A stretch of 61,248 nt of DNA, filler included, from Jimgerdemannia flammicorona (taxonomy: Eukaryota): assembly GCA_003990765.1 (NCBI GenBank). It is 2 parts of 2 records of this genome, joined end to end, with 100 filler letters (N's around TTAATTAATTAA, not from the genome) between each part and the next. Parts side by side here need not be neighbours in the genome. Positions count along the whole stretch, not along the records: positions 30,680 to 61,248 come from RBNJ01000439.1; 1 more part is not named here. The stretch is one strand, 5' to 3'. How positions within the stretch are numbered: the stretch's first letter is position 1; the number at the start of each line of letters is the position of its first letter. Of this stretch, positions 15,592 through 55,282 are shown in pieces. The notes under the pieces were generated by a model. That model ran no database searches. It saw nothing but the letters and a program-made list of their open reading frames with translations, and was not told the origin of the DNA. The position numbers and the translations under genes were made by a program.

Positions 15592-15628
<37 letters not shown>

Positions 15629-15633
<5 letters not shown>

Positions 15634-21720: not shown

Positions 21721-21779
21721 ATTCTGTAAACCTGACTTAATTAATCTGAAACCCAATCTATAAAACAGTCAACTTGGAA

Positions 21780-21995: not shown

Positions 21996-22098
21996 AAACT
22001 CTGTCTTAAAAAAATGATTCAGATAATATTTGGATAATATTCAGAGCAATTAAAAGTAAAAAATATCTAAAGATTACTAAAAATCTAGACATATATAT

Positions 22099-23673: not shown

Positions 23674-24039
23674 TCTTCCTCCTGAATAAGGATCTTCTTA
23701 AATATCCTTATTCATTAGTCCAGTCCTGAAAAATTTGCTGATTTCATAACCTCTGATAGAGGGTTAAAAGGTAGTATTTATGAGCTGGTGTCTTCTCTAG
23801 TATTTTGGTATGATGGTGAAGAGTCATTATCTTCATATAGAGCAAGGGCCTGATTATGATCTTGACTAATCAGTTGATAGTTCAAACTCCTCTAGCTTCA
23901 AAAGTCTCATGGATGAGTAGTTGCTGGTACTATATCCCTTAGAGAATGGTCCAGACAGATTGCCTACTGGTTACAGGACATACTGTTATGATTCACAGAC
24001 TAGAACCTCATGGGTGGTCATCACATTTTACTTCTCTTA

Positions 24040-29275: not shown

Positions 29276-29331
29276 TTTTCAGCTTGAAAGTGAGGGATTC
29301 ATCTTGAATCACCAGCCAATAGGTACCAAGT

Positions 29332-30579: not shown

Positions 30580-30679
30580 NNNNNNNNNNNNNNNNNNNNN
30601 NNNNNNNNNNNNNNNNNNNNNNNTTAATTAATTAANNNNNNNNNNNNNNNNNNNNNNNNNNNNNNNNNNNNNNNNNNNN
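30580..30679. other. Assembly gap: 44 N + TTAATTAATTAA + 44 N
   Basis: Exactly 100 bp with a palindromic six-frame-stop linker. Contiguity across it is not established. Confidence 0.97.
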
Positions 30680-32817
30680 CTGATCAAATGGCGACCATAT
30701 CTAGAAGGAGCACACTTCACTGTATTGACTGACCACAAGTCATTAGTCAACATCAAGACACAGGCTACTCTTTCTCGAAAGCAAGCTAGATGGATGAAAG
30801 TCCTCACCAACTTTGACTACGAAATTCAGTACTGCCCTGGCAAGGAAAATATTATTGCCGATGCAATCTCCAGACCACCAATCGAAGAGGTTATCCAAAC
30901 TCTGACTTTGGTTACCAATACTATCATGGAACAAATCATCACAGCATGTGTTGATGATAAAGAAGCATAAGCACTCCGAGAAATCCTGAACAATGATGAT
31001 ACTGACAAGCATACCCGGTACAATCAATACCAACTCAAGGACAATGCTATCTACTATAAGGACAGACTGTATGTCCCAAACAACTGAGACCTCCAAAGGA
31101 CTATCCTATTCGAATGTCATGATGCCCCTACAGCTGGACATTTAGGATTTGATAAATGTTACAAAGTTATCTCCCGAAACTTCTATTGGCCCCACATGGC
31201 AGATCAGCTCAAAACTTACATCACTTCCTGTGATGCCTGCCAACGAAACAAGTCCTCAACACTAGCAAAGCCCGGCTTACTTCACCCTATCCCAGTACCA
31301 TCTGCAAATTGGGAATAAATCTCTATGGACTTCATTGTACAACTACCAAGAACCAAGAATGGAAAAGATGCAATTGTTGTCTTTGTGGACTATCTCAGTA
31401 AACAAGCCCACTTTGTACCTACTACCACTACTGCAACAGCACCAGACATAGCCACACTCTTGTTTGACAACATCTTCCACTATCATTGTCTTTCTAAGAT
31501 CATTGTTAGTGACCGAGATCTGAAATTCACCAGCCACTTTTGGAAAGCCCTCCATGCACACCTTGGAACAAAACTTGCACTATCCACAGCCTTTCACCCT
31601 GAAACCGATGGCCAAACCGAAAGAATGAACCGAACTCTGGAACAAATGCTAAGGAACTATGTCTCCTACAGACAAGATGATTGGCATGAACATCTCACCG
31701 CAGTCGAGTTTGCCTATAACAACAGCAAGCAAGCCTCTCTTGGAATGACCCCATTCTTCACCAACACTGGACAAAATCCAAACACCCCTTTGACACTTAT
31801 CCGAACCACTGAAGAACCCTCCACAGTTGAAGCTGTTGAAGAATTCCTACTCTGAATATGCAATCTAAGCCAGATCGCAATTGAGAATTTATCATGAGCT
31901 CAAGAACAACAGTCACAGTATGTTAACCAACACCGCCAAGAAGAAACCTTTGATATTGGAGAAAAAGTTCTACTAGACATCAGAGGATACCGAGTTGACA
32001 ACCTCAAACACAGACCATCTACAAAGCTGAACAGCAAATTCATTGGACCATTTGAAGTCATCGCACAAGTCTCTCCAACCTCCTACAAACTGGCACTACT
32101 GGACACCATTAAGATTCACCCAGTCTTTAATGTTCAACGTCTCAAGCGATATAATGATAATGACGACGAGCTATTTCCAAATCGGACCACCAAACCACCT
32201 GCACCTGTCATCATAAATGACCAAGAAGAATACGAAGTTGAACAAATCCTCAACAAACGTGGCAACAAGAACCATCCTGAGTATCTTGTCAAATGGAAAG
32301 GTTACCCGATCCACGATGCAACCTGGGAACCCAAGACCAATCTTCAGAATGCTACCAACCTAGTTCAGGAATATGATTCCTTGAACAACTAGAACCAAAT
32401 ACTCTGCACCTATCCATACATACTATATATTACCCTCCTGAACATTATAACTATTACAAACCAAATCAAGAACTCAGCAAAATAAGACAAGAATACCAAC
32501 CCTCTGGAAAAAATAGCAAAACTGAAAGCAAGCCTATTCTCCCCATACCACTGATGGGAAATGAGGCGTAGATATTTAAGAAGATTCCTTAGAGGAAATT
32601 CTCCAGCAGTGAATGATGTCAGAATCACTTCCGGTACATGGCATTGAACACACGACCCTTTAACGTATGAATCCAACGTGTTAGGCAACTGTACTATGAG
32701 CATGCCACTTTCTGAGAAAATGAACCTTACTAGGCTTTTGACCTCCCAAATGGTGTAACAATACTAGAATAAATTAGAAGGCCCGACGAGGATGTCGAAA
32801 GCTAAGAAGGGGAGAGT

Positions 32818-34881
32818 TGTAAGTGTATAACCTCCAAGCCACCGAAATTACATGTCACCCTCTGAACAAAGCCACTGAAATCACACGCGACCTCTGAACA
32901 AATCTGGAAATCACCTGCTTGATCACGAAGCTGAGTCAAACCGAAGTCACAGTGCACAAAGCTGAGTCAATACGAAGTCACGAAACACAAGATCTACACA
33001 AACAGAACCTTACCAATCAGGACCAAATACATATATACTGAGCACCGAGACGCGTCGAATCAGAGAACCAAAACAAATAACAACCACAACTTTCAAACAC
33101 ACAAACATGACCACTGAGATCTACAACCGCATCCGCGCTGATATTTGGAATGCCATTGTCAACCGAGCCACACCCCCTCTGTCCCTCATGAATATCCATA
33201 GCCTGGCACCCCTCTACTTCGTGGAAGCCCGATGGAATGCCCTGAACATGCTTAGCGAGGCCCACTGAATCAGACAAATCTCAAGCTACTACCAGATTGG
33301 CTGCCTCCTGGAAGACATGGTCGAACACCACCATGATACAGACATTACCCAGATGTCTCAACACCAGAAGCTCATCGCCCGCAAACATCGAGAACTCTTC
33401 TATGAGTATAGCACCTTTATTCCCTGCCTCCGAGTTACTACCAGCGAAATGGTTGCTACCCTGTCCTATGGCCAAATCGATAACATGATACAAGAAATCA
33501 ACCACAAGTACCTCGAATATGTCCAGACCACAGACAGAACCTTCCCGCACCCTGACGACCACATCCTGCAAATGCCTCAAGTTGGATATACCATGAAGGA
33601 TGTCTACAATATAATCCACTTCGACGAAGATGAAGTAGAAGACAATGATCCCTCTGACGCTGACATGACCTCTAGCCAAAGATCTCTGCCAACCCTGATC
33701 ACACTGCCAAACTTACCGATGAACCTACAACAGTTCATAACTACATATGAAACTTATTGGGACAATGACCACTAGCATGAATATCAACCCGCGTTCACCT
33801 CCGACTATTTCAACTACAATGAGGAGACTGGAGAATACAACCTGTACCTCCAGACAACCCTCGAGATCGAACCAACTATACCACCACCTGAGTACGAGCG
33901 ACATGAACCACAGCCGCCAGCTTATTACAATTCTGCAACTCATAGTGCTGTAACCTATAGAAGGTACGCAGACAGTGAATCTGACGAAAGCGAAGACAAT
34001 ATACCCATCCTTCATCCACCAACATCTTATCCAGCCTACGAGACAGACGATGCTATCCTGTGGGATGGAGATGAAGTCCCAATGTATTACTACCTCAGCC
34101 AATAAGAAGAAGTAATCCGCGAACCACTCTTTCTAGACAACTACTTCATCAGAGATGATGCAATCGATGGTGATATCATTGAAGACTACCCAGATAGTGC
34201 CTAAACCTATAAATAGTCTAGCAGTCATAGTATAGATAGATTAGCCTTGTATGACATGACTGTGAACTGACTCAGCAGTCAGACGATCTCTTGACATGTC
34301 AGATCACACTTATACTACATGACTGCATTCCGACTCAGCAAGGCACTTAGTGCTACATCCATATCTAGTATAGTCCAGATAGCCCCTCACTAGTATAAAT
34401 ACCCCCTCCCCCAGATCTCAGAATCTCAGACTTGAACAATCCGAACACAACTCCTGAGCACTTCCCCACAATACCTCTTCACACAAATACTCCTAGTATA
34501 GCAATATCATGAATAGCAAATAAACCTATTCTATAACCCACAAACCACTCTTAAGTAAATCTGCTCCCTGTTAGGTCCCACTCCTAACCCTATCACGAAA
34601 TTTCCTAATTGGGTATTGTCTGCAGTGATACGCCAATTCAACTAAGCTGGTCTTAGTTTCTTGAACTTCCTGAAATACGGAAAATCCTGAACATCCAGAA
34701 CTAGTCCGAAAAAGGACTTTGGTTGAGATGTCAACCCGATCTTGAAATCAATAAGCATAGAGGACGTACTCTATATGAAATTGATCTTGACCATAAGAAA
34801 ACAGTCTTCCAGAATACCCAGAACTTCCAGAAAACCTTCTAGAACTATGTAACGGCTACCCTAAAAAGTAACCCTCTTACA
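32818..34881 (+). repeat. Family A 3' LTR (2064 bp)
   Basis: TG...CA termini, preceded by PPT aagaaggggagagt. Near-identical to 43894-45967. Confidence 0.95.
33107..34204 (+). pseudogene. Family A LTR(U3)-encoded ORF, copy 1 (365 codons, internal stops)
   Basis: ATG at 33107 to TAA at 34202-34204, same length and frame as the other copies. Reads CGA where the other copies have TGA after PPPEYE. Confidence 0.8.
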
Positions 34882-34959
34882 TCTATCTAGATCAATTAAT
34901 TAAATAAGTTCTGAAGATTATAAAGAAGTAGGAGATGATATTAATACTATACTATATGA
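34882..34959 (+). pseudogene. hAT transposase relic, fragment 1
   Basis: Joins in frame with 49712 onward once element C1 and one ATGA copy are removed (DDINTILYEYIFNKRQKLIINPEQEIDAYL). Confidence 0.6.
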
Positions 34960-37900
34960 TATGATGGTTGATCTGAATTAGTATGAATCAGAGGAATAAG
35001 ATATTTGATCATAGTATCTGAATCTGATTCCCAAATATAGTATAGCTCAGATAGCAGTCATTTCACAAATGTTAAAGTTTTCACAAATATTAAACTATTC
35101 ATAGATATTAAACTCTTTGATGATTGTCAAAGATTTAACAGATATCAAAGATTTAATACTTGTGAAAGAAATGACTCATAGGAAACATAGTCATAACTTA
35201 GCCATCTTATAGCTAGTGAAACTTGTATAAATAACCCAGTATCTTAGAGTGAATAAAGCCTCAGATCGAAATAGTTCAAAGCAAAGAGATAGCAAGAAAC
35301 TAGTAAGCCTGCAAGCAGATACACTTTGAACTCACCCACTTCTATAACTCCAAAGACTCTGCAAGAGTCAGAACAGTTAAGTATTCAAGATACAGAAGTT
35401 TAACTTACTTTCAAAAGTAAGTATCCACTACATTATAACTTGGTACCTATTGGCTGGTGATTCAAGACAAATCTCTCACTTTTAAGCTGAATAATGAACA
35501 ACTGCCACTACCCAAACAACTATACAAACTGAGCCCCAATACCCAGACAAGATAGATATAAGATCACCAGTATTTTATAGATATATCTCAGATGAATCAA
35601 TCATCACCTTCATTGATGATTTCGAGCATTACACTGCTGTAAGGACCCTGACAGCAGTACAGAAAGTAGCCCTTATGCTCTTTAGCCTATGAGGCCCTGC
35701 AAGAGCAGCATTCATAGCTGCAAACTATGTGAAAAATGATGCCATTGTTACACTGATAGTACAGAAGACCTGGCTTTGAACTACTTACTACATAGATGAA
35801 ATTAAGTAAGCTCTAAAGAATCAGCTCAACACAATATACCAAGGAATGAGTGAAGATCTAAACACATTCTACATAAGAATCTGATACTAGATAATCCTTG
35901 CAGATTATACTAATGCTATCTGAGACCAAGTAGTAGAAGCAACCTTTATAAAAGGAGTCTACCCAGAGATAGCCATGGCTATCTGCTTATTACCAGTAAT
36001 TCTAGATCTGCCACAGAAGGTCACCTATGCTCAGTGATACTAGATAGCCAGACACCCACAAGACCATATGATGGAGAGGGTTACAGGAGTCAGAATCGAA
36101 GTACCCAAGACAATTAGTGTGATCCCTATCATAATGATCAATTGAAACACACCTCAGCCAAAAGCTATAGAGCAGCAAAAGAACAGTGACCCTTTGGAGG
36201 AACTTACTAAGAGGTTTGTAGAAATGACTGCCCACCTGGGAGATATAGTAAAGGAGATCAGAGGAAGAGACCACCACCTTGTTCAGAAGTTTGCTGCCAC
36301 CTCAGACAGAAAGAAAGGTACTTATTATACCTGTGGAGAAGAAGGCCACTACTCTTATAAATGCATGAGTGAAACCAAGCACAAGGTCCAACCAAGTAAT
36401 GCTATTAGAAACAAGGAGTAGACCAACATAATTATCTTCAAAGAAATTGGAGATTCTGATAAAGAAGAATGGGAGGCCTATCCTGCCCAGACCTCTAAGA
36501 AGGATGTTCGCAAGGAACCCTACAAGAGACTGCCAGGAAGACCCAAGAAGAACTCAGTGGAAAAGCAGATGAAAACTGCCACAGAAAGCCAAGTTGAAGA
36601 GATAGACCAAGATATGGAGCTAGAGTAAGTAGTTCAAAATATTATCTGAGAAACCACTCTAGCCAGCAAAGGAGAAAAAGAAAAGAAACTTCACAAGACT
36701 AAGACCTTCAAGTATGATATCTTCAAGGATCTTAGCCAATAAAAGGTCAATAAAACTTTTGGTCAGCTCGCAGAAATCCCAACATTCAGACAGCAAATGA
36801 GGTTTGGACTCACCGAAACAACCAAGAAGCAAGGATGGAAGATAACCAAGGCCAATAACATTCAAGAGGACTCAGGAGAAGAAAGTGAAGACAATTGTAA
36901 AACCTCTGTCTATGCAATATGCCAAATCAAAGATAGAATCTTTGAAGCCATCATTGATACTGGAGCAGAAGGATATCTTCTCAGTAAGAAGGCAGCAGAC
37001 TGCCTAGGTTGGGAGATTGAAGAAGCAACCAAGTTGGTGTTCATCACAACAGATAGTACAAGAGCCACCCCTCTGGGAAAGATCTGAGATATCTCCATCA
37101 AGATTGGAGGAGTAATCATTCCAGTAGATATAATCGTAACTAATGCTACCAACTATGATATCCTTATTGGCAATCAATGGCTTCACAAAGCCAGAGCAGT
37201 AATCAAGCTCAATGCTCAGAAGATGCAAATTACCTATTGGGGACAGAAGATACAAATTTCCATCAATGTCAATAAAGGAGTCTTGCCTGATATAGAGTAA
37301 GAAGAGAGTGAGCAAGAGGAAGCTTATATAGTGACTACTCCGAAGAAGAAAGTAGAATGGATGAGTGAAGAAGAATAGTATAAGAAGATCACAGAAAGCT
37401 ACACACCACAAGGAGTCTGTCCTCATGGGACCAAGATGTACTGTATGGAGTATGTTAATAATTGCTACCAGTGCACCATCAGAATCAAGAAGATCCACCA
37501 GGAAAGAAGACAGAAAGCTCTTGAAAAATAGGTCAGAGAAGAGAAGGAGGAGGAAGATAATGAACCACCAGCCCTCCTGGAGGATAGTGATGATGAAGAA
37601 GAAATCAAGGTCAAGATTTAAAGGACCCACCCTGATATAGTCTTACCAGAATATAAGTTGGAAAATGCAGCTGGAATGGACATCACCACAGTAGAAGAAG
37701 TCATAATAGAACTCCAGACAACCACCCTACTTGCAACTGGACTAGAGATGACTATCTCAAAGGATCATGTCAGAATCCTCAAGACAAGAAGCAGCCTGGC
37801 CAGAAGTGAAATTACTATTGAAGGAGGAGTCATTGATTCTGACTATACTGGAGAAATTCTGCTCATTGCTAGAAATCACAACCCTACAATTCCATTCCCA

Positions 37901-38247
37901 GTCAAGAAGAAGGACTGATTGGCACAGATGCTGATCTTTCTGATCCTATAACCAAGGATGTAAGCGCACAACCTCTAAGCCACCGAAAATACACGTCACC
38001 CTCTGAACAAAGCCACTGAAATTACACGTGACCTCTGAACAAATCTGGAAATCACCTGCTTGATCACAAAGCTGAGTCAAACCGAAGTCACAGCGCACAA
38101 AGCTGAGTCAATACGAAGTCATGGAACACAAGATCTACATAAACGGAACCTTACCAATCAGGACCAAATGCATATATACCAAGCACCAAGACACATCGAA
38201 TCAGAGAACCAAAACAAACAATAACCACAACTTCCAAACACACAAAT

Positions 38248-39345
38248 ATGACTACTGAGATCTACAACCGCATCCGCGCTGACATTTGGAATGCCATTGT
38301 CAACCGAGCCACACCCCCTCTGCCCCTCATGAATATTCATAGCCTGGCACCCCTCTACTTCGTGGAAGCCCGATGGAACGCCCTGAACATGCTTAGCGAG
38401 GCCCACTGAATCGGACAAATCTCAAGCTACTACCAGATCGGCTGCCTCCTGGAAGATATGGTCAAATACCACCACAATACAGACATTACCCAGATGTCTC
38501 AACACCAGAAGCTCATCGCCCGCAAATATCGAGAACTCTTCTATGAGTACAACACCTTTATCCCCTGCCTCTGAGTTACTACCAGCGAAATGGTTGCTAC
38601 CCTGTCCTATGGCCAAATCGATGACATGATACAAGAACTCAACCACAAGTACCTCGAGTATGTCGAAATCACAGACAGAACCTTCCCATATCCTGATGAC
38701 CACATCCTGCAAATGCCTCAAGTCGGATACACCATGAAGGACATCTACGATATAATCCACTTCGACGAAGATGAAGCAGAAGACAATGATCCCTCTGATG
38801 CTGACATGACCTCTAGCCAAGGATCTCTGCCAACCCTGATCACTCCACCAACCTTGCCGATGAACTTACAACAGTTCATAACTACATACAAGACTTATTG
38901 GGACAATGACCACTGGCACGAATACCAACCCGCGTTCACCCCTGACTACTTCAACTATAATGAAGAGACCGGAGAACACAACCTATACCTCCAAACAACC
39001 CTAGAGATCGAACCAACAACCCCACCACCTGAGTATGAGTGACTCGAACCACAGCCGCCAGCTTACTACAACCCCACGACTCATAGTGCTGTAACTTATA
39101 GAAGGTATGCAGACAGCGAATCCGATGAAAGCGAAGACAATACACCCATCCTTCACTCACCAATACCTTATCCAGCATATAAAACAGACGATGCTATCCT
39201 GTGGGATGGAGATGAAGTCCCAATGTATTACTACCTCAGCCAACAAGGAGAAGTTATTCGCGAACCACTCTTCCTAGACGACTACTTTATCAGAGATGAT
39301 GCAATCGATGGTGATGTCATCGAAGACTACCCAGATAGTGCCTAA
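38248..39345 (+). pseudogene. Family A LTR(U3)-encoded ORF, copy 2 (5' LTR)
   Basis: 365 codons. Three TGA stops, each at a position that is CGA in at least one other copy. Confidence 0.8.
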
Positions 39346-40035
39346 ACCTATAATTAGTCTAGCAGTCATAGTATAGATAGATTAGCCTTGTACGACATGA
39401 CTGTGAACTGACTCAGCAGTCAGACGATCTCTTGATATGTCAGATCACACTTGTACTACGTGACTGCATTCCGACTCAGCAAGGCACTTAGTGCTACATC
39501 CATATCTAGTATAGTCCAGATAGCCCCTCACTAGTATAAATACCCCCTCCCCCAGATCTCAGAATCTCAGACTTGAACAGATTTGAACAATCCGAACACA
39601 ACTCCTGAGCACTTCCCCACAATATCCCTTTACACAAATACTCCTAGTATAGCAATATCATGAATAGCAAATAAACCTATTCCATAACCCACAAACCACT
39701 CTTAAGTAAATATGTTCCCTGTTAGGTCCTACTCCTAACTCTATCACGAAATTTCCTAATTGGGTATTGTCTGCAGCGATATGCCAATTCAACTAAGCTG
39801 GTCTTAGTTTCTTGAACTTCCTGAAATACGGAAAATCCTGAACATCCAGAACTAGTCCGCAAAAGGACTTTGGTTGAGACGTCAACCCAATCTTGAAATC
39901 AATAAGCGTAGAGGACATACTCCATACGAAATTGATCTTGACCATAAGAAAACGGTCTTCCAGAACATCTAGAATATCCAGAAAACCTTCTAGAACTACG
40001 TAACGGCTACCCTAAAAAGTAACCCTCTTATAACT

Positions 40036-40047
40036 TGGTAGCAGCGA
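40036..40047 (+). promoter_or_regulatory. Primer-binding site, probably initiator tRNA-Met
   Basis: TGGTAGCAGCGA lies 3 nt after the LTR. It implies a tRNA with A1:U72 and A73, the eukaryotic iMet signature (inference). Confidence 0.7.
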
Positions 40048-40993
40048 TTTACAATCCAATTCCGCTTTAAGACGCTTCCTCACCCCGCTACAAACCCCTC
40101 TGCGAATTCCTACAAGTTGGTATAAAGCCCAACCTCTGAACTGGAATTTATCTGAACAATCGGACAATCTGGAGAGAATTGAACCTGATGTACAAGGACA
40201 ATTTGACCTCCACATCTGCAACAAGTGGGATAAACTTCATTCAAAGAAAGAAGTACTCAAGTTAAATCAGCAAATAGGCGAAACCCTATTCATCGAACTC
40301 CTTGCACTACACCCAGCAAGTCAAGATGAAGAAGGTCTTATTGAAGTCTTCTTTACTCTTCTCAACAAGAGTTTTGTCAGCTCCACAAATCCGAGCAACC
40401 TAGGACAACCAGCAGCAGTCTTTCTAGCCTTAGTTTCTCACGAAGCCCAAGCCTCTGTAGCCAAGTGGCTCAACTCTACCAACTTTCACCGCACCAGGAC
40501 CAAGACTGCATTATACTACTGATTCCAGAACAGCAAGGCCCGCCATATTCTTAAGGAAGAAGCAAGAGAAATCCTTCATCAACTACCTAACCCCGAACCT
40601 GAAGCAGGCCCTACTACAGCCCTACCTGAATCTGAAACCAACACCGAACCTGAACTTGACTTTGAATTAAGTCCATCTGAAATCAGATATACAACTGATT
40701 CTGTCTACTTTGACGCTGAGCAAACCCAATTACACAGGGACCAAACCGAAGAAGAGGAGGAGTATCTCACCGAATTCGATCCCGGATACACCACCGAAGG
40801 AGACATACATCCATCAGGATAGAATACACCTACACAGCAACAAACAGCTATCTATCAAGCTCTCACTCCAGATCCACAACTACTACTCCAGCAACTTACA
40901 TAGACCCAAAGAACCCCATCACACTCTGCACCAGTACCTCAAGTAGTACCAGTAATACCACTACCAGCAGTCCAACTGTCTCCAGTAAACAAC

Positions 40994-43468
40994 ATGGTGA
41001 ACCAACAGATTCTAGACCTTACAGCCCAAGTAGCTATAATGGCAGCAACCATTACTGCCTTAGCTGAACAGACCCGACCTACCAAAAATCTGAGCCTACC
41101 TACCTTCAATGGTACTGCACAAGAAGTCCAAAGCTTCATTAGTGTAGTTGACACCAACTTTGAAGCCAATCAATGGACCAATGAGCAAGTTGCTGACCGC
41201 GTTCTGACAAACAATCAAGACCACACCCTGGAACAACTCTTTGCTACAACTACAGCCTATGTCCACCGAGTTGTTACATTCTTCCAAGGACCTGCCGAAG
41301 AATGGTGGTGAACTCTTCCTGAAAAACCCCTCATATGGGATATCCGACCTGCAGTAGTTACTCAGAATGCAGCAAACAATGCCCCAGGATATGGAGCCCA
41401 TCCTGCAGCACCTGGACTCAAACAACTCATGATTGCTCAATATCGCAGCGAGACCATGATTGCCGAATCTCGAGTAAAACTCCGCAACCTCAAATTTGAT
41501 GTACATGGCAAAGAAGAATTCGAAACCTTCTGTACAAAACTCGAGTCACTTCTGAACACTGTTGGCCTAGGATATATTGCCAATGATGAAGCACGAAATG
41601 GTACAAGAGCAGACCATTTATTTGATGCCCTGCCTGAATGGCTTATTAGAAAAATCTGAGAACAAGGCCACCCAGTTGGTTGCGATCACCAACAATGGTG
41701 CCTAGCAAGAATCAAGACTATGGTCAAGCGAATCCTAACAGTTGGACCAATTCTGCCCTGAAGGCAATTCAACAACAAGGAAAAGACTTGGACTAAGAAA
41801 GAAGAACCCAAGCATGAAGCATCCCAAGCTCCCTCCACATCCACCTCTTGGACACCCAGAAATCATGAACCCACCCAGCCGAGTACCTTCAAGAAACTTA
41901 CTGAAGGTGAAAGGAACGAACTTCAAAGAAGCGGAGCATGCTTCTATTGCCGAAAGACAGGACACATGGCCAGTGTCTGCCCCAACTGAAAACCCCAAAC
42001 AGCAACATGAGCAACTGTTACTACTCTGCACCACCTCAACAACCTGACCACCAGAACACTAGACTTTGTCAAGTTAAGACAAACTGCTAAGGCCCCAACC
42101 AAAGGAAGTCAAAAAGCAGCTGGATATAACCTGTATGCAGCCAAAGAAGCTACAGTTTCTAACTGAGAAGTCAAACAAGTCTATACAGGAATCAGCATCC
42201 AAATCCCTGAAGGATATATTGGAAGAATATGCTGTCGCAGCAGTCTAGCATTGAAAGGACTCTCAGTAGAAGGAGGAGTCATTGACAAGGATTACACAGG
42301 CAAAATTATTATCCTCATCCGAAACCACAGTTGGACACCCTTCAAGATCCCTATTGGCTTCTGCATCACCCAGATCCTATTCGAAAAAATCAAGTCAACC
42401 CTGACAGTCAAGGAAGTCCCTGAACTACTGCCCACCATCCGAGGATCCAAAGGATTTGGCTCATCAAACAAGGCCCCAGCCCAACCTACTGTGAGCAAAG
42501 AAGAACAATTCTATAAGAAGATCGAAGATAGATATGTACCAAGTGGCCAATGCCCTCATGGTATTGGAATGTACTCTTCCCGAATGATTGATGATTGCTT
42601 CTCTTGTGTCAATTAACTGGCTCAAAGAAGAACCAACAGAAGAAAGGCTCCTACAACCGAAATCACCACAATTGGATCAGACAAACTGCTCACTCTTAAG
42701 GCTTTTGTCAACGGAGCACCTGTCAAGATTATGATAGACAGTGGTGCCTCAGGCAACTTCATCAATGAGGAAACAGCCAACAGACTCAAGGTCTTCACCT
42801 CCCCAGTACAGCAAACTCAAGCAGTTGCTACAGCTGATGGAACCTCACATGTTATTAGCAAAGAAGTCCGCAATCTACCCTTCCGAATTGGCGACTACCG
42901 AGTACATATTACCCTCCAAATCGTACCACTTCCTGATAATGAAATCATCCTTGGGACTCCATGGTCAAAACAAGAGAACCCCATGATCGATTGGGTAAAC
43001 CATTCTCTGACCATCAAGAAAGGACGCCACAACTTCAAACTATAAGGCGAAAAGGACTCACTCAACTCTAGTGACCCTGGACCAAAGATCACCCACATCA
43101 ACAAGCTACAACTCAAGAAATTGGCCAAGAAATGCCCTCTCTTCGCCATCTCCATCTGACCATCCAAAGGAGAACCCGAGAACTCCAAAGAAGATTTTTC
43201 CAAAGTTGACAGCCATGTCAGACCACTACTCCAGAAGGTCCAAGACATATTTCCAAACTGAACCACCGAACCACCTACACCTGTCATCATAAATGACCAA
43301 GAAGAATATGAAGTTGAACAAATCCTCAACAAACGTGGCAACAAGAACCATCCTGAGTACCTTGTCAAATGGAAAGATTACCCGATCCATGATGCAACCT
43401 GGGAACCCAAGACCAATCTTCAGAATGCTACCGACCTAGTTCAGGAATATGATTCCTTAAACAACTAG
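40994..43468 (+). pseudogene. Single-frame Gag-zinc knuckle-dUTPase-CPHG-protease-chromodomain polyprotein
   Basis: All domains share one frame: LPTFNGT, CFYCRKTGHMASVC at 41939, AAGYNL/GGVIDKDYTG/RGSKGFGSS, MIDSGASGNFI at 42731, EYEVEQIL...WEP, TAG at 43466-43468. Internal stops are mostly C>T-type. Confidence 0.92.
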
Positions 43469-44182
43469 AACCAAATACTCTGCACCTATCCATACATACT
43501 ATATATTACTCTCCCGAACATTATAACTATCACAAACCAAATCAAGAACTCAGCAAAACAAGACAAGAATACCAAATCCCTGGAAAAATAGCAAAACTGA
43601 AAGCAAGCCTATTCTCCCCATACCACTGGTGGGAAATGAGGCGTAGACATTTAAGAAGATTCCTTAGAGGAAATTCTCCAGCAGTGATTGACGTCAGAAT
43701 CACTTCCGGCACACGGCATCGAACACACGACCCTTTAATGTGTGAATCCAACGCATTAGGCAACTGTACTACGAGCATGCCACTTTCTGAGAAAATGGAC
43801 CTTACCAGACTTTTGATCTTCCAAACGGTGTAACAACACTAGAACAAATTAGAAGGCCCTGATGAGGACGTCAAAAGCTAAGAAGGGGAGAGTTGTAAGC
43901 GCACAACCTCCAAGCCACCGAAAATACATGTCACCCTCTGAACAAAGCCACTGAAATTACACGCGACCTCTGAACAAATCTGGAAATCACCTGCTTGATC
44001 ACGAAGCTGAGTCAAACCGAAGTCACAGCGCACAAAGCTGAGTCAATACGAAGTCACGGAATACAAGATCTACATAAACGGAACCTTACTAATCAGGACC
44101 AAATGCATATATACCGAGCACCAAGACACATCGAATTAGAGAACCAAAACAAACAACAACCACAACTTCCAAACACACAAAC

Positions 44183-45280
44183 ATGACTACTGAGATCTAC
44201 AACCACATCCGTGCTGACATTTGGAATGCCATTGTCAACCGAGCCACACCCCCTCTGCCCCTCATGAATATCCATAGCCTGGCACCCCTCTACTTCGTGG
44301 AAGCCCAATGGAATGCCCTGAACATGCTTAGTGAGGCCCACCGAATTGGACAAATCTCAAGCTACTACCAGATTGGCCGCCTCCTGGAAGACATGGTCGA
44401 ACACCACCACAATACAGACATTACCCAGATGTCTCAACACCAGAAGCTCATCGCCCACAAATATCGAGAACTCTTCTACGAGTACAACACCTTTATCCCC
44501 CGCCTCCGAGTTACTACCAGTGAAATAGTTGCTACCCTATCCTATGGCCAAATCGATGACATGATACAAGAACTCAACCACAAGTACCTCGAGTATGTCG
44601 AAACTACAGACAGAACCTTCCCGCACCCTGATGACCACATCCTGCAAATGCCTCAAGTCGGATATGCCATGAAGGACGTCTACGATATAATCCACTTCGA
44701 CGAAGATGAAGCAGAAGACAATGATCCCTCTGATGCTGACATGACCTCTAGCCAAGGATCTCTGCCAACCCTGATCACTCCGCCAACCTTGCCGATGAAC
44801 TTACAACAGTTCATAACTACATACGAGACTTATTGGGACAATGACCACTGGTACGAATACCAACCCGCGTTCACCCCCGACTACTTCAACTATAATGAAG
44901 AGACCAGAGAACACAACCTATACCTCCAAACAACCCTAGAGATCAAACCAACAACCCCACCACCTGAGTATGAGTGACTCGAACCACAGCCGCCAGCTTA
45001 CTACAACCCCGCAACTCATAGTGCTGTAACTTATAGAAGGTACGCAGATAGTGAATCCAATGAAAGCGAAGACAATACACCCATCCTTCGCCCACCAACA
45101 CCTTATCCAGCATATGAAACAGACAATGCTATCCTGTGGGATAGAGATGAAGTCTCAATGTATTACTACCTCAGCCAACAAGGAGAAGTTATTCGCGAAC
45201 TACTCTTCCTAGACGACTACTTTATCAGAGATGATGCAATCGATGGTGATGTCATCGAAGACTACCCAGATAGTACCTAA
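44183..45280 (+). pseudogene. Family A LTR(U3)-encoded ORF, copy 3 (best preserved; one TGA)
   Basis: The 264-aa ORF continues after the TGA at 44975 (CGA in copy 1) to TAA at 45278-45280, giving 365 codons. Unknown function. Confidence 0.85.
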
Positions 45281-45469
45281 ACCTATAATTAGTCTAGCAG
45301 TCATAGTATAGATAGATTAGCCTTGTACGACATGACTGTGAACTGACTCAGCAGTCAGACGATCTCTTGATATGTCAGATCACACTTGTACTATGTGACT
45401 GCATTCCGACTCAGTAAGGCACTTAGTGCTACATCCATATCTAGCATAGTCCAGATAGCCCCTCACTAG

Positions 45470-45477
45470 TATAAATA
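45470..45477 (+). promoter_or_regulatory. Putative TATA box of the family A LTR
   Basis: TATAAATA followed by a C-tract, conserved in all five A LTRs, with AATAAA ~135 bp downstream. This places the ORF in U3. Confidence 0.6.
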
Positions 45478-48400
45478 CCCCCTCCCCCAGACCTCAGAAT
45501 CTCAGACTCGAACAGACTTGAACAATCTGAACACAACTTCTGAGCACTTCCCTACAATATCCCTTTACACAAATACTCCTAGTATAGCAATATCATGAAT
45601 AGCAAATAAACCTATTTCATAACCCATAAACCACTCTTAAGTAAATCTGTTCCCTGTTAGGTCCTACTCCTAACTCCGTCACGAAATTTCCTAATTGGGT
45701 ATTGTCTGCAGCGATATACCAATTCAACTAAGCTGGTCTTAGTTTCTTGAACTTCCTGAAATACGGAAAATCCTGAACATCCAGAACTAGTCTGCAAAAG
45801 GACTTTGGTTGAGACGTCAACCCAATCTTGAAATCAATAAGCGTAGAGGACGTACTCCATACGAAATTGATCTTGACCATAAGAAAACGGTCTTCCAGAA
45901 CATCCAGAATATCCAGAAAACCTTCTAGAACTACGTAACGGCTACCCTAAAAAGTAACCCTCTTACAAAGGATCATAGAAGTCAAGAATTTGGAGGAAAC
46001 AAAAAGAGGAAAGAAAGGATTTGGATCTATAGGAAGAGGAGTATTCACCAGTACCAAGATCACCAAACTGAAGCATAAGAAGAAGGAAATCACAAACAAG
46101 TACAGCTATACCATTGGAAATAAATTTCCACTCAAGGAGAAATTCAAGAAAATACTCTATAAATTCAAGGATGTCTTTGTCATGAACTTCAAGGATATTA
46201 AAGGAAAGACTCCACACTACTATCATAAGGTAGATACTGGAGACACTGAACCAATTTACCAGAAGGCAAGACCTGTCCCACCAGCCTACCAAGAATAGCT
46301 CAGAGAAGAAATCAAGCAGATGGAAAAAGCCAGTATTATTAAAGAAGCCAGTAGCCCCTGGTCTTCACCAGTTATACTAGCCCCAAAAAAAGAAAGCAAG
46401 CTTGGAGAATTTGCCCCAAGACTCTGTGTTGACTACAGAAAGCTCAATGTGGTTATCAAGAAGGATCACCAATCACTGTCCCTCATCAGTGACATCCTTA
46501 TAATACTAGGAGATGAAGTACAGTACTATAGCACCTTGGACTTATACTCAGAATTCCACCAAATTGGACTCACAGAAATGGCAAGTGAAAAGTCAGCCTT
46601 CATCACTCCTGACAGAACCTATATTTACCTGTGAATGCCATTCGGGATGTGTAATGCACCAGCAAGCTTCCAGCAAATGATGAACAAAATCTTCTGCTAT
46701 GATATAGAAAGATGGATGATGGTTTATATTGATGATGTAATTATCTACAGCAAGATACCTGAGGAATATCTGCAGCACATACAGCAGATAATGGAGAGAC
46801 TAAGACAATATGACCTTTACATCAAACCCAAGAAGTGTAAGTTTGCAGAAATTGAGATCTTCTACCTTAGCTATGTTATCAATTGAGATGGAACACATAC
46901 AGACCCCCTCAAGATACAAGCAGTAGCAGCATACCCAAGGTCCACTACTGTTACAGAAACCCAAGCCTTCATGGGACTTATCTCCTACTATCACAGATTT
47001 ATTAGAGGATTCTCTAACATCACAGATCTAATCTATGAACTCAATAGGAAGGACACCAAGTTTCAGTGGACTGGTAGACAATAAAAAGCATTTGATGAAC
47101 TCAAGGTCAGACTGACCCAGGCACCTATTCTTAGATGACCCAATTGGACTCAAGAATTCATCCTGCAGACAGATGCAAGTGCACAGGAACTAGGAGTAGT
47201 TCTAGCTCAAAAGGAAGACAAAAAAGAGTACATCATTGCATACCTTAGCTACAGAACCTGAGGAGCTGAAAAAGAATATGAATCCTACAAGTTGGAATGT
47301 CTTGCAGTCATCTGGGCTATAGAAAAGTTCCACTACTATCTGGCTGGAAGACACTTCATCATTCAGACAGACCACTCAGCTCTCACCTGACTACTGACAA
47401 CTGGATAACCTAAAGGAATCTACACCAGATAGATAATGAAGCTACAAGCCTACAATGTAACCATTGTACACCACCCTGGAAGAACAAATTCCAATGCAGA
47501 TGCTCTCTCATAAACATCCCAAAATACCTCCAACCAACAAATTAATTATAAATAAGAAGCTCTACTATAGAATTATCACATATCTGGGACAGCAAAAGAT
47601 GCCCCAACATCTGGAAGAATAGATACAAATGATTATCAACAAAACATGGAAACAATTCAAAACCAACAGAGAAACACTGAAGAAAGGAAAACTACTGGTC
47701 ATACCAGAACACAAGAAGGAGTAAGCTATGAAATCAGTATATAAACTTGGCTATCTAGGAGGAACAAATATATATAACAAGGCAAGAAGAATGATATAGT
47801 GATCAGAAATGGAGGAAGATATCAGACAATTTGTCAAAATCTGTAACAAATGCCAGAAACAAAAGCAAGACCAACAAAACCAAGCTCTGGAATCAGCATA
47901 CATAGAACCAGTACCATTTGCCCATATAGCAATGGATGTAATTGGCCCTCTACCTTTGACCTTGACTGACAACTGATATATCATTATCATCATAGACCTT
48001 TTTACAAAATGGATAGAAGCAAGACCCCTTAAGGAAGTCAATGTACAGTCAATTGCCTATTTCTTTCACAAAGAAATCATCTGCTGGTTCAAGACTCCAA
48101 TGCAAGTAACTACAGATAGAGGAACAGAATTCATGAACCAGTTCTTTGAGATTCTCTATAAGAAGTACAAAATCTAGCACATTCAGACCACAGCCTATCA
48201 CTCTCAAGGAAATAGACAAGTAGAAAGAACCAACAAGACCCTCAAGAATATTATCACCAAGATCTGTGATAACTATGAAAACTGGAATCATTATCTGCCA
48301 ATAGCATTATCTGCTCTCTGGGATATCAGATTACAAAGTACCTACTTTATCTCTCAAGAAATACTGTTTAGAGAAGAAAGTTCTTAAGAAACCCTATTGT

Positions 48401-48730
48401 CCAATAGAGATGCTATATGAAAACATATGGATCAAGAAATATAGAGACTACACCAAATCAGGAAGAAGGTCAAAGATTATATAACCAAGGTACAGGTACT
48501 ACAATAGAAGAATGTGGAAAAGACCCACAAACCCTTGGAGATTATCAAGATAGGAGACAAAGTTCTGGTGTATCATAATATAGTAGAAGCTTCATAGTCA
48601 TAAAAACTGGAGCCCAAGTGGGAAGGACCTTACCTTGTGCAAGATATAAAAGAGACTACCTTTTGGCTACAAAAACTCTCAGGCACAATCATCCCTACTA
48701 CCATTTATCAAAACCAACTCAAGAGGTACC

Positions 48731-49192
48731 ATAACTAACCAGAGAAGTATTGCCTCAGCTCTCAAGATCACTAGTGCTGCACAGTAAGCCATAGAAAGAC
48801 AATGGTGCACCACCAAACCACCTGCTATGGAGGAATCCTTTGATAGTATCCAGAGTATAGTCCAGACACACTTGTCATGAATTTCACACTTTAAGGCCTA
48901 TCAGAACTGAACCGAGTTTCAGGAATACTTCAAACTAGGATAACTACTAAATTTGCAGCTAGAGATGGGAAAAGAAGACTGGATTAGAGAGTGCCAGCTT
49001 TCCCATATTCAGATCACAATTACCAAATAAATCAACAAGTTGTTCAAGGATAATGAGCCAGCCTTAGCCTACTTTCGAGGAGTAGTCCCAGGAAATTTTG
49101 GATATATCAAAAGACATCATTAGGAGAATGTAATGATATAAATTGTATAGTATAAGGAGATACAAATTATAGAAGCATGGGAGTTTGAGTAA
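48731..49192 (+). pseudogene. Family C post-integrase accessory ORF relic (~153 codons)
   Basis: Frame intact from ATA (ATG in C2 at 58858) to TAA at 49190: QEYFKLG(Q)LL...ITITK(R)INKLFKDNEPALAYFRGVVP. All stops are transition-derivable. Confidence 0.72.
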
Positions 49193-49711
49193 ATAGGATG
49201 TTTCAGAGATAAATCACCTATTCAGGAGGAAGTTGTGACAGTTGATCTGAATTAGTATGAATCAGAGGAATAAGACATTTGATCGTGGTATCTGAATCTG
49301 ATTTCCAAATATAGTATAGCCCAGATAGCAGTTATTTCATAAATATTGAAGTTTTTACAAATGTTAAACTATTTACAGATGTTAAACTCTTCGATGATTG
49401 TTAAAAATTTAATAGATATCAAGGATTTAACACTTGTGAAAGAAATGACTCATAGGAAACATAGTCATAACTTAGCCATCTTATAGCTAGCAAAACTTGT
49501 ATAAATAACTCAGTATCTTAAAGTGAATAAAGTCTCAGATTGAAATAGTTCAAAGCAAAGAAATAGCAAGGAACTAGTAAGCCTGTGGGCAGATACACTT
49601 TGAACTCACCCACTCCTGCAACCTCAAAGACTCTGTGAGAGTCAGAACAGTTAAGTATTAAAGATACAGAAGTCCGACTTACTTTCAAGAGTAAGTGTCC
49701 ACTATGTTACA

Positions 49712-50021
49712 ATGAATATATATTCAATAAAAGACAAAAACTGATAATAAATCCTGAGCAGGAGATAGATGCTTATTTGAAAAGTAAAACTATTAAATTT
49801 TAAGTAGAAGTTGATATATTATCTTAGTGATAAGTGAGTTAGAAATTCAAGTTTCTCTAATTGATTTAATTGATTGAAAAATTAGATCCATAGTGGGGAT
49901 TTCTAAATTTAGTAAAAATGGCATATATATATAACTACTTAACTATTATAGTAACAAGTATTCTAATTGAGAGAGTTTTTTTAAATAGTAAAAATCTTAT
50001 ATAATTTTACTATATAAGATA
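49712..50021 (+). pseudogene. hAT transposase C-terminal dimerisation domain relic with a probable intron
   Basis: EIDAYL...DILS(W)(W), then gtgagt...tag, then FLNLVKMA...YLTIIVTSILIERVF. Matches the hAT consensus FPxLAxMARDYLAIPATSVPxERVFS after transition mutations. Confidence 0.75.
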
Positions 50022-53000
50022 TATAATAGTTGATCTGAATTAGGAATATAAATCAAAAGAATAGACATTTGATTATAGTATCTAAATATGATTCTCAAAT
50101 AAGTATAGCCTTATAAATAGCAGTCATTTTACAAATATAGAAACTTTAACAAATGTTAAAATTTCACAAATATTAAGATTTCACAGATACATATTAAGAA
50201 TCTATATTTGTAAAAAAAGTAACTTATAGAAAATATAGTTATAACTTAGCCATCTTATAGCTAGTAAATTTATATAAATATTTTAATATCTAGAGTAAAT
50301 AAAATCTCAGATAAAAATAGTTTAAAGTAAAGAGAAAGCAAGAGAACTAGTAAGTCTGCAGATAGATATACTTTGAACTCATCCACCCCTATATTCTGAG
50401 GACTCTATAGAGTCAAAGAAGATCAAGTTTTTAAAATACAGAAATCTGATATATTTATATAGTTATGTGTTCACTATATTACAACTTAGTGCCCATTAGC
50501 TGATGATTCAAGATAAATCTCTCACTTTCAAGCTAAATAATGAACAACTACTATTACTAAACTAAGACACCCAAATAAGATAGATATGAGACTACCAGTA
50601 TTCTATAGATATACTTCAGATAAATCAATTATTACCTTCATTGATAATTTCAAGCAATATGCTACTATAAGAATCCTGATAGCAAAACAACAAGTAGCTC
50701 TTATACTCTTCAGTCTCTGAGACCCTACAAGAGCAGTATTCACAGCTGTAACTTATATAGGAAATGATGATAATGCTGTACTGACAGTACAGAAGATCTG
50801 GCTCTAAGCTACCTACTATATAGATAAGATCAAGCAAGCTCTAAAGGATCAGCTCAATACAATATACTAAGAAATTAGTAAGTATCTAAACATATTCTAC
50901 ACTAGAATCCAATATTAGATAATTCTTATAGATTATACTACCACTATCTGAGATCAAGTAGCAGAGGGAATCTTTATAAAAGAAGTCTATCCAGAGATAG
51001 CCATGTCTATCTACTTATCATCAGTAGTCCTAGATCTAGTACAAAAGATCACCTATGCTTAGTAATACTAGATAGTCAGACATCTCTGAATTGAAGTATC
51101 TAAGATAACCAATATAATCTCCACTATAGTAATTAATCAAAACACACCTCAGCTAAGAGTTACTGAGTAGTAGCAAAATAGTGACCCTATGGAGAAACTA
51201 GCTAAGAAGTTTACTGAAATGACTGTCTACCTAGGAGATGTAATAAAAGAAATCAGAGAAAGAGACTATCACCTAGTTCAAAAGTTTGCTGCCATCTCAG
51301 ACAAGAAGAGAGATATCTGCTACATCTGTAGAGAAGAAGGTCATTACTCATATGAATATATAAGTGAGACTAAGTATAAGGCCCAGCTAAGTAATACTAT
51401 ATAAAACAAGAAACAGATCAATACTATCACCTTCAAAGAAATTGGAGAGTCTGATGAAGAAGAATAGGAGACCTACTCTATATAGACTACTAAGAAAGAT
51501 ATTTATAAGAAACTCTACAAGAGACTACCAGAGAGACTTAAAAAGAACTCAGTGGAGAAATAAATAGAAATTACTATAGAAAGCCAAGTTGAAGAAATAG
51601 ATCAAGATATGGAGTTGGAATAGGCTATTTAAGATATTATTTAAAGAACTACTCCAACCAGTGAAAGAGAAAAGAGAAAAAGCTTTGCAAAATCAAAACT
51701 TTTAAATATGATATCTTTAAGAACCTCAGCTAATAAAAGATCAATACAATCTTTAACTAGTTGGCAGAAATATCTACATTTAGACAGCAAATAAGATTTG
51801 GACTTACTGAAACAACTAAGAATTAAGACTGAAAAATAACTGAGACCAATAATGTTCAGAAAAATTTAGAGAAGAAAGTAAAGATAATTATAACACTTCT
51901 GCCTATACAATCTATCAAATTGAAGATAGAATCTTTGAGGTCATTATTGATACTAGAGTAGGAAGATGTCTCCTCAGTAAGAAAGTAGTAGACTATCTAA
52001 ATTGGGAGGTTGAAGAACCAATCAAGTTAGTATTCATTATAGTAGATAAAACAAGAGTCACACTTCTGAAAAAGATCTGAGATGTTCTTTTCAAGTTTGG
52101 AAGAGCAACTATCTCAGTAGATGTAATCATAATTAATACTACTAATTATAATATTCTCATTATCAACTAGTGGCCTCATAAAGTCAGAGTAATAATTGAC
52201 CTAGATGTCCAGAAGATGCAAATTACCTATTATGGACAAAATATGTAAATTTTTATCAATATCAATAAAGAAGTACTCCTCAAAATAAAGAAAGAAGAAA
52301 GTAAGCAAGAAGAGACCTATATAGTAACTACTCAGAAAAAGAAGAAGAAAGTTAAATAGATAAGTAAAGAAGATTGATATAAGAAGATTATAGAAGAATA
52401 TATACTATAAGAAGTCTGCCCCCATAGGATCAAGATATACTATATGAAGCATATCAATAATTATAATTAGTATACTGGCAGAATCAAGAAGATCTATTAT
52501 AAAAGAAGACAGAAGGCTCTCAAGAAACAGGTAAGAGAAGAAAAGAAGGAAAAAGAGGATAATAAACCACCAGCTCTCCTTAAAGACAGTAATGATGAAG
52601 AGGAAATCAAGGTCAAGATTCAAAAGATCTATCCTGATACAGTTCTACCAGAATATAAGTCAGAGAATATAGCTAGAATAGATATTACAATAGTAGAAGA
52701 AACTATACTTGAACTCTAGACAACTACTCTACTTATAACTGATCTAGTGATAGTTATTCTAAAGGACTATATCAGAATTCTCAAAACAAGAAGTAGTCTG
52801 GCTAGGAGTGAGATTGTCATTGAAGGAAGAGTTAGAAGTTAGCAGAAACAGAGAAAGAAAGGAAAGAATTTAGATCTATTAGAAGAGAAGTATTCACCAG
52901 TACTAAGATCACTAAACTAGACCACAAGAAGGAAAAAACTACAAATAAGTATAACTATACTATTGGAAATGAATTTCCACTCAAGAAAGAACTCAAGAAG

Positions 53001-53932
53001 ATACTTTATAAATTTGAGAATATTCTGGCTATAGATTTCAAAAGATGCTACATTATTACTATGATATAGATATAGGAGATACTAAATCAATTTATCAAAA
53101 AAGTAAGACCAATTCCATCAGTCTACTACAAATAGCTCAGAAAAGAAATCAAGCAAATGGAAGAAGCTGATATCATCAAAGAAGCTAGTAGTTCTTAGGC
53201 TTTACCAGTTATACTAGTCTCAAAAAAAAGGAAATAAGTCAGGAGAATTTACTTCAAGGCTCTATACTGATTACAGAAAGCTCAATCTAGTTATCAAGAA
53301 GGATTACCAACTACTATCTCTCATCAGTGATATCCTTATAACTCTAGGAGATGAAGTATAGTATTATAGTACCTTGGACTTATATTTAGGATTCTATCAA
53401 ATTAGTCTCATAGAAGTAATAAGTGAGAAGTCAGTCTTTATTACTTCAGATAAAACTCATATTGATCTGTAAATACTATTCAGAATATATAATATACTAG
53501 TAAATAATGAATAAAATATTCTACTATAATATGGGAAAATAGATGATGGTTTATATGGATAATATAATCATTTATAGCAAGATACTAGAAGAGTACATAC
53601 AATATATTCAGCAGATGATAGCTGAGAAAGTATGGTCTATATATTAAGCTCAAGAAGTACAAGTTTGTAGAAATTAAGATCTCCTATTTTAGCCACATCA
53701 TCAACTGAGATAAAACATATATAAACTCTCTCAAGATTCAAGCAATAGTAGCATATCTAAGACCTACTACTGTTACTGAAGCCTAAGCTTTCATGGGACT
53801 TACCTTATACTACTGTAGATTTATCAAAGAATTCTCTAATATCATAGATCTAATCTATAAACTCAATAAGAAGGATATTGAGTTCTAATAGACTAATAGA
53901 TAATAAAAAGCATTTGATGAGCTCAAGATCAG

Positions 53933-55134: not shown

Positions 55135-55282
55135 ATGAGCTCAAGATCAGACTGATCTAAGCACCTATTCTCAGAAGACTCAATTGGACTCAAGAATTCA
55201 TTTTGTAAATAAATATAAGTATATAAGGACTAGGAGTAGTCCTAGTTCAGAAGAAAGACAAAGTAGAGTATATTATTACATA

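Follow-up and report, generated by a model that had tools for sequence, protein, structure and literature searches.

The window considered here is a stretch of 61,248 nucleotides (nt) from Jimgerdemannia flammicorona (assembly GCA_003990765.1), formed by two records joined with 100 filler letters, in which positions 30680–61248 correspond to RBNJ01000439.1. It contains, at 37959–45967, a complete long terminal repeat (LTR) retrotransposon of 8009 bp, hereafter the focal element. This is very probably a dead, internally deleted element of the chromodomain type that lost its reverse transcriptase (RT) and integrase and was copied to new sites by the enzymes of related elements. With the same high confidence we regard it as a non-autonomous deletion derivative of a dUTPase-bearing chromovirus of the Ty3/gypsy type. 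The finding is in itself ordinary, as internally deleted elements often use enzymes supplied by full-length relatives, a situation that is well understood. Its value lies in offering a clean and delimited example: one deletion, a probable microhomology, two independent insertions, and a trace of selection on gag, dUTPase and protease and not on the chromodomain, a pattern that would tell which parts such a parasite still needs. All features given below lie on the plus strand unless otherwise indicated.

Structure of the Element and Its Insertion Site

The focal element is bounded by two direct LTRs of 2074 nt, the 5' LTR at 37959–40032 (TG..TA) and the 3' LTR at 43894–45967 (TG..CA). The 5-bp sequence AAGGA stands on both sides, at 37954–37958 and 45968–45972, as a perfect target-site duplication (TSD). 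A primer-binding-site (PBS)-like sequence, TGGTAGCAGCGA, is found at 40036–40047, three bases past the 5' LTR, and a polypurine tract (PPT), AAGAAGGGGAGAG, at 43880–43892, one base ahead of the 3' LTR. Direct LTRs of the TG..CA type with a short TSD, a PBS next to the 5' LTR and a PPT next to the 3' LTR are the features that define this class of element. Comparison of the window with itself gave 79 differences over the 2074 sites of the LTR pair (96.2% identity), 78 of them transitions and one a transversion, without gaps. A tRNA scan of the whole window returned no genes, and an Rfam scan of the same window gave no matches.

The insertion took place inside an older LTR retrotransposon (~34945–49710, with LTRs at 34967–35430 and 49241–49704), whose dUTPase it splits. 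The left flank, 37622–37915, matches positions 4–85 of the 129 positions of the Pfam dUTPase profile and, as read from the sequence after removing the insert and one AAGGA, the right flank resumes the dUTPase frame of the host element with the motif ..RGKKGFGS. Continuity of this frame was the check applied to the insertion site; a related element carries a deletion of its own at the same stretch, which makes a three-way alignment uninformative.

A single internal reading frame extends over 40034–43465, with no frameshift and with 13 in-frame stops. Pfam was run on its translation (P0001), with X at the stop codons. The best supported domain is a dUTPase (PF00692, residues 685–811, 42086–42466, E 2.4e-31), located between a zinc knuckle and a protease. 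The protease is a retroviral-type aspartic protease with the motif DSGAS (residues 882–998, 42677–43027), recognized by several models with a best E of 5.6e-12, and it is followed by a chromodomain (residues 1092–1140, 43307–43453, E 6.7e-16). The CCHC zinc knuckle, representing the nucleocapsid end of gag (residues 635–651, 41936–41986), has an E of 0.0024, which is below the Pfam cut-off. No RT, RNase H or integrase family was detected by Pfam in P0001, and no gag family rose above noise in the four stop-free ORFs (open reading frames) of the upstream gag region. As Pfam gave no gag family, the gag of the focal element is named by its position and its zinc knuckle only. The Pol order is reduced to protease and chromodomain in the focal copy, in comparison with RNase H, integrase, SH3 and chromodomain in a relative located at 30680–34881; no copy of the family in the window shows the RT. 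Absence of RT and integrase with retention of the cis-acting signals is the hallmark of a non-autonomous deletion derivative, and the dUTPase domain within the polyprotein is that of a dUTPase-bearing chromovirus.

The focal family is barely represented in protein databases. Among 5.8 billion proteins, the piece from protease to chromodomain gave two matches of similar length out of 360 candidates, 29–34% identical and neither with a chromodomain, and a 525-residue query from dUTPase to chromodomain gave four protein matches with 29–39% identity. One predicted database protein (P0008, 1179 aa), 39% identical to the focal dUTPase region, combines a zinc knuckle with protease and dUTPase domains, and its precomputed Pfam list names neither RT nor integrase families. 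This protein may be the product of another RT-less retroelement or a partial gene model.

Deletion Junction and Second Deleted Copy

The relative at 30680–34881 comprises the C-terminus of RNase H, the H2C2 zinc finger and core of an integrase, a Tf2-type SH3 domain, a chromodomain and a 3' LTR. It resembles the focal element exactly from position 43248 onward (92.4% identity over 2721 nt), and in a three-way alignment the common stretch opens with TATTTCC, at 43248–43254 in the focal copy. Just upstream of this motif the focal element reads ..LLQKVQDIFP and the relative ..NDNDDELFP, so that the pre-RT linker ending in ..DIFP is joined onto the integrase tail, which reads ..ELFP in the relative. 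The frame is kept across the junction, and protease and chromodomain are in one frame. In an intact relative (P0004) the same motif is followed by ..KDVFPEDIPKGLPP, the start of the RT region. Alignment of the piece from protease to chromodomain with an intact chromoviral Pol (P0006, 1231 aa) yields two blocks, residues 63–262 and 1149–1225, which means that ~886 residues (~2.7 kb) are absent from the focal copy, with both breakpoints at an xFP motif. This motif is conserved at both breakpoints in relatives, and TATTTCC itself is present at the 3' breakpoint in the relative at 30680–34881. A microhomology at TATTTCC is likely to lie behind the deletion; the 5' parental sequence of the focal family is absent from the window.

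The same junction occurs at ~17367, within 15629–17472, in a second deleted copy, located at 15629–19033. It is 89.1% identical to focal positions 41510–43353, with 201 of 1844 nt differing and no gaps. An extra deletion, corresponding to focal positions 43353 to 43820, takes out most of its chromodomain, and on the 5' side the poly(A) tail of a long interspersed nuclear element (LINE) truncates the copy at 15629, with loss of its 5' end and its own TSD. Its U3 region, 17594–18313, is unrelated to the focal U3: 720 nt of other sequence replace 1.3 kb of the central U3, including an ORF described below, and the LTR ends on either side are conserved. This difference may reflect either a swap of U3 modules or a later replacement.

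Beyond ..CTCTTACA, no two of the four family members in the window have the same 3' flank, and of the three copies that span the junction site two are deleted and one bears the integrase. Because the identical junction is found in two copies with different 3' flanks and different U3 regions, the deletion arose once, before transposition, and the deleted form has transposed at least twice. The junction is thus present at independent loci for two copies, with a TSD on the focal copy only.

Recombination between the deleted and the full-length lineages is likely, judging from the discordant U3 regions of the two copies that share the junction. The groupings of sites in the part formed by the 3' LTR also suggest it: 24 informative sites (3 transversions) unite the focal copy with the relative at 30680–34881, 3 unite the two deleted copies, and 5 unite the relative with the second deleted copy. 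Parallel CpG decay in the two older copies could, nevertheless, yield much of the signal in the 24-site grouping.

Most of the structural part of the first-pass annotation of this DNA has held. The perfect TSD, two LTRs, PBS and PPT that it had listed are those described above; its view of a non-autonomous element arisen by in-frame internal deletion of RT, RNase H and integrase agrees with the Pfam results and the frame; and its claim of an independent copy with the same junction, deleted before transposing, is sustained by the different 3' flanks and U3 regions. It had also proposed an integrase-bearing partner with near-identical LTRs. The integrase, the LTR type and the proximity are correct, whereas the LTR of this relative is 92.4–92.5% identical to the focal LTRs. 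The description of the same relative as an autonomous copy is not supported: it is a 3' fragment beginning at runs of N (30580–30623 and 30636–30679) that we read as an assembly gap, and has six in-frame stops, five of them inside the coding frame. The TATTTCC microhomology that the annotation had put forward is plausible in view of the motif in the relative and of the xFP motifs, and stays an inference, with the 5' parental breakpoint lying outside the window.

Selection after the Deletion

Every difference between the focal and the second deleted copy postdates the deletion, except for any that recombination may have brought in. These differences were compared with a neutral simulation (1500 runs) in which the observed transitions are redistributed among sites of the same dinucleotide class. 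In the true frame 86 of the 188 transitions are synonymous versus 66.2 ± 5.0 expected, a value that none of the 1500 simulations reached. The wrong frames show no excess, with 56 synonymous versus 70.2 expected in frame +1 and 47 versus 52.3 in frame +2. The excess is distributed over the C-terminus of gag (19 versus 13.1 expected, P 0.011), the dUTPase (25 versus 19.0, P 0.022) and the protease (27 versus 17.9, P 0.0007). For 43046–43353, comprising the linker, the junction and the start of the chromodomain, 15 synonymous transitions were counted versus 17.0 expected (P 0.87, with only 42 transitions available). As a control, the ORF of the focal 5' LTR was compared with that of the 3' LTR, which reports on decay after insertion, and the outcome was neutral (20 synonymous versus 18.2 expected).

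Thus, the gag C-terminus, the dUTPase and the protease appear to have been under purifying selection during part of the life of the deleted lineage, and no constraint is detectable in the fused tail. This constraint is consistent with an element that, for a time, supplied itself with Gag, dUTPase and protease. The retained domains, on which the first-pass annotation had suggested a check for selection, are therefore constrained in these three regions but not in the stretch of linker, junction and chromodomain. For the protease–chromodomain fusion that it had described, the common frame is real, whereas a working fusion, like a dominant-negative role, is unsupported in view of this lack of constraint, of a TAA stop at 43043 common to both deleted copies, of the loss of most of the chromodomain in the second copy and of the 13 stops now present.

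Decay and Stop Codons

The 13 stops of the focal frame are nine TGA, two TAG and two TAA. Three lie between protease and chromodomain, at 43043, 43157 and 43259, the last one immediately past the junction. Most of the focal stops correspond to a sense codon at the same place in another copy. Of the 78 transitions between the focal LTRs, 41 are at CpG and 28 at CpA/TpG; in terms of sites, differences affect 43 of 170 CpG positions and, among CpA cytosines, 20 of 193. As nearly all transitions fall at CpG and CpA, the divergence of the LTRs is no simple clock. The observed/expected CpG ratio is 0.54 in the focal element, 0.15 in the second deleted copy and 0.01–0.07 in the older elements around them, very strong CpG depletion being seen in older elements of the window such as 19034–30572 and 34945–37958.

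Four stops are common to both deleted copies: the TGA codons at 41657, 41987 and 42008, and a TAA just past the protease (43043–43045). Among CpG sites that are intact in the other copy, the mutated fraction is 81% for the second copy and 55% for the focal one. The idea that the TGA codons held in common prove the ancestor to have been defective was considered and rejected, as about three would be expected from parallel CpG decay (an estimate) and three are seen. For the shared TAA, on the other hand, only ~0.1 such stops are expected by chance, also by estimate, and it may be ancestral.

Origin of the Deleted Element and Alternative Explanations

We think that a single deletion of ~2.7 kb between two short stretches coding for ..FP, the first where the RT region begins and the second in the integrase tail, would have eliminated RT, RNase H and all of the integrase but its chromodomain, leaving the frame intact. 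The likeliest mechanism would be a template jump of the reverse transcriptase at the TATTTCC microhomology. The deleted RNA would still have had LTRs, PBS and PPT, with presumably a packaging signal as well, and, to judge from this anatomy, the RT and integrase of full-length relatives could have copied and integrated it at least twice, producing the focal element and the copy at 15629–19033. That gag, dUTPase and protease remained under purifying selection for a while once the deletion had occurred suggests that these proteins served the element that encoded them (cis preference), while the stretch from junction to chromodomain was probably untranslated or unneeded. After insertion, both copies would have been inactivated by C-to-T/G-to-A hypermutation at CpG and CpA, the focal copy being a fossil.

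Several points weigh against this account. Trans-mobilization has to be inferred, because the window holds no full-length autonomous copy: the relative at 30680–34881 starts at a gap and has stops. The 5' parental breakpoint is likewise not present in the window. Recombination with autonomous elements could have brought in the synonymous excess, which would then not reflect selection on the deleted lineage, and the test on the junction stretch rests on just 42 transitions. Finally, by our own arithmetic, the per-lineage CpG rate of ~13% derived from the LTRs predicts about three new TGA codons and nine are seen, with a Poisson tail of ~0.003. Either several stops are older than the insertion or the LTRs understate the decay, and the focal copy may have been made from a template that was already defective.

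The alternative that survives best, although we consider it unlikely, is that the element belongs to an adapted parasitic or dominant-negative subfamily, which would function in part through a translated protease–chromodomain fusion, alongside a capsid, a dUTPase and a U3 protein of its own. The frame kept across the junction, the purifying selection on gag, dUTPase and protease after the deletion and the selection on the U3 ORF (see below) are all in its favor, and a cis-acting in-frame fusion protein is documented for the mouse element IAP (intracisternal A-particle) I-delta-1, as outlined in PMC6466679. Yet a translated fusion would hardly be expected to show no synonymous excess over 43046–43353 (15 versus 17.0) or to have the TAA at 43043 in both deleted copies, against ~0.1 expected by chance according to our estimate. 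Moreover, the second copy is without most of the chromodomain and without the U3 ORF, and neither of the two proteins of similar length among 5.8 billion carries a chromodomain.

Far less probable is that the two copies with the junction derive from a segmental duplication or from gene conversion between loci rather than from two transpositions. Just two copies are seen, and the LINE poly(A) cut at 15629 has left the second one with no 5' end or TSD, which is what gives this explanation some room. But the 3' flanks differ immediately beyond the LTR end, the focal copy is flanked by a perfect TSD of its own within the host dUTPase frame, the U3 regions differ and the copies diverge at 11% of sites. 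We give equally little credence to an origin by splicing, in which a subgenomic RNA would have lost the segment and then been reverse-transcribed and inserted, leaving the deletion as its trace. Reverse transcription can act on spliced RNAs of retroelements, and the deletion is precise and in frame. However, the relative at 30680–34881 has GC just 5' of the common stretch and not the AG of an intron end, while the nearest AG predicts C where both deleted copies have A; the donor side is absent from the window. An assembly artefact, that is, a collapse between similar short motifs, is scarcely credible in spite of the assembly gap 7 kb upstream in the window, since the same junction recurs in two copies with 201 differences over 1844 aligned sites and is thus no one-off mis-join.

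Open Reading Frame inside the LTR

A less expected feature is an orphan ORF contained in the LTR, which would merit a study of its own if it is expressed. In the 3' LTR it extends over 44183–45280 and has 365 codons, with the ATG at 44183, a terminal TAA at 45278–45280 and one in-frame TGA at 44978. The copy in the 5' LTR (38248–39345) is in the same register (offset 5935) and has three in-frame stops, and further copies are found in the LTR of the relative at 30680–34881 (33107–34200) and in a solo LTR (55311–56250). The latter is a diverged solo LTR of the focal family at 55285–57355, with TSD GCATA/ACATA, which is without ~425 nt of the 5' U3 and has a 432-nt insertion. In these four LTRs the frame and the terminal stop of the ORF are kept; the second deleted copy is without it. 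Downstream of the ORF lie TATAAATA at 45470–45477, a candidate promoter marking the end of U3, and AATAAA at 45605–45610, a candidate polyadenylation signal, both assigned by consensus only, and it is on account of these two motifs that the ORF is probably located in U3.

Between the focal and the solo LTR, the transversions at codon positions 1/2/3 number 4/4/17 in the ORF (17 of 25 at third positions) and 6/10/4 downstream of it. Between the focal LTR and that of the relative at 30680–34881, 46 transitions in the ORF are synonymous versus 35.8 expected (P 0.005), in the true frame only, and the transitions between focal and solo LTR give a weaker result (87 synonymous versus 79.2 expected, P 0.06). 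A HMMER search of 1.84 billion proteins yielded three matches, of which two are clear relatives and the third is a repeat protein matching on one short motif. The first relative (128 aa) is 91% identical over the N-terminus. The second (247 aa) is free of stops, is 65–67% identical over residues 116–365 (67% over 149 aa in the HMMER match) and has the same ..EYPDS end. A word-index search with the ORF gave one match. No Pfam family was found in it, the best score in a language-model atlas was 0.86, below the meaningful level, and an AlphaFold model built on a four-row alignment was unusable, with a mean predicted local distance difference test (pLDDT) score of 30. Judged from codon positions and synonymous counts, the ORF encodes a predicted orphan protein that is conserved and under selection.

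Mouse mammary tumour virus (MMTV) has a gene, sag, inside the U3 of its retroviral LTR. The focal ORF would be alike in being a protein-coding ORF wholly in the LTR and upstream of the promoter, although no similarity in sequence or fold was found (no Pfam family, unusable model) and both the host and the class of element differ. Among the literature matches listed, which concerned retroviruses or other topics, there was no example of an ORF within the LTR of a retrotransposon, which is a weak negative.

A wider reading, which we hold only tentatively and with somewhat less than even confidence, joins two proposals: that U3 holds a real accessory gene of ~365 codons without known relatives, under purifying selection and duplicated with every LTR, and that the deleted lineage was a self-provisioning parasite making its own Gag, dUTPase and protease, borrowing RT and integrase, and swapping U3 modules with its helpers by recombination during co-packaging. 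If true, the two together would be new, the first providing a retrotransposon counterpart of a retroviral gene encoded in an LTR.

Comparison with Known Systems

The closest precedent is the mouse IAP I-delta-1, an element with an in-frame internal deletion that needs Gag and Pol in trans and whose fusion protein acts in cis, according to the account in PMC6466679. As there described, it has in common with the focal element the in-frame internal deletion, the non-autonomous condition and the mobilization in trans by full-length relatives (presumed in our case). Retained coding seems to matter in both, by means of a cis-acting product in IAP I-delta-1 and as purifying selection on gag, dUTPase and protease in the focal element. 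The same source presents IAP I-delta-1 as a mammalian endogenous retrovirus in which a 1.9-kb deletion fuses gag to pol and keeps parts of RT and integrase. In contrast, the focal element has lost RT, RNase H and integrase entirely, leaving only a chromodomain tail, and its fusion shows no constraint.

Non-autonomous LTR elements and their partners have been described in plants as TR-GAG, LARD, TRIM and BARE-2 (PMC4350172), and such elements are mentioned as common in fungi (PMC3248453). Going by these descriptions, the plant elements and the focal element have intact LTRs, PBS and PPT, have lost polymerase functions and need an autonomous partner. TR-GAG elements, as defined in PMC4350172, are shorter than 4 kb and contain a single gag-only ORF, whereas the focal element has 8009 bp with dUTPase, protease and chromodomain. 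LARD and TRIM are characterized there as devoid of coding capacity and BARE-2 as devoid of gag; the focal element departs from LARD in having recognizable domains in one frame with selection on them. Its set of gag, dUTPase, protease and chromodomain fits none of these named plant classes.

Regarding the parental type, dUTPase domains are reported for fungal chromoviruses, among other places at the N-terminus of Pol, as in PosPlaTy3-3 (PMC2864245). A dUTPase-bearing chromovirus and decay aimed at CpG would both suit a fungal host. As far as that report describes them, elements of the PosPlaTy3-3 type are like the focal element in belonging to Ty3/gypsy, in having a chromodomain after the integrase and in placing the dUTPase ahead of the protease. 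Unlike the focal element they are full-length, and the best database relatives of the latter are 29–39% identical.

Other Repeats in the Window

The whole window is made of nested repeats, and no host gene was seen in it. The N stretch at 30580–30679, two runs of 44 N with 12 bases between them, parts the relative at 30680–34881 from the LTR of a minus-strand element at 22116–30572. A search of the language-model atlas with the integrase core of this relative returned nothing but generic integrase clusters, of plant and basidiomycete origin, and pointed to no particular host. The minus-strand element belongs to a second family of three LTR retrotransposons, 72–78% alike, whose other members are the host of the focal insertion (34945–49710) and an element at 50008–59840. 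Pfam confirmed a dUTPase ahead of the protease in 34945–49710; the matching stretch of 50008–59840 has a deletion of ~130 bp. The RNase H region of 50008–59840 contains a 1.2-kb insertion (53933–55135) with no recognizable ORF. The insertion has a 23-nt poly(A) at its end, and the copies of a 16-bp duplication, ATGAGCTCAAGATCAG, stand on its two sides, at 53917–53932 and 55135–55150.

Two LINE copies, 70–80% alike, are placed in inverted orientation at 375–6242 (minus strand) and 9484–15631 (plus strand), with an extreme strand composition (GC skew of −0.45 and +0.43). The plus-strand copy has an endonuclease/RT frame at 11843–15532 with a single in-frame stop, and its 35-nt poly(A), at 15597–15631, is the one that cuts the second deleted copy.

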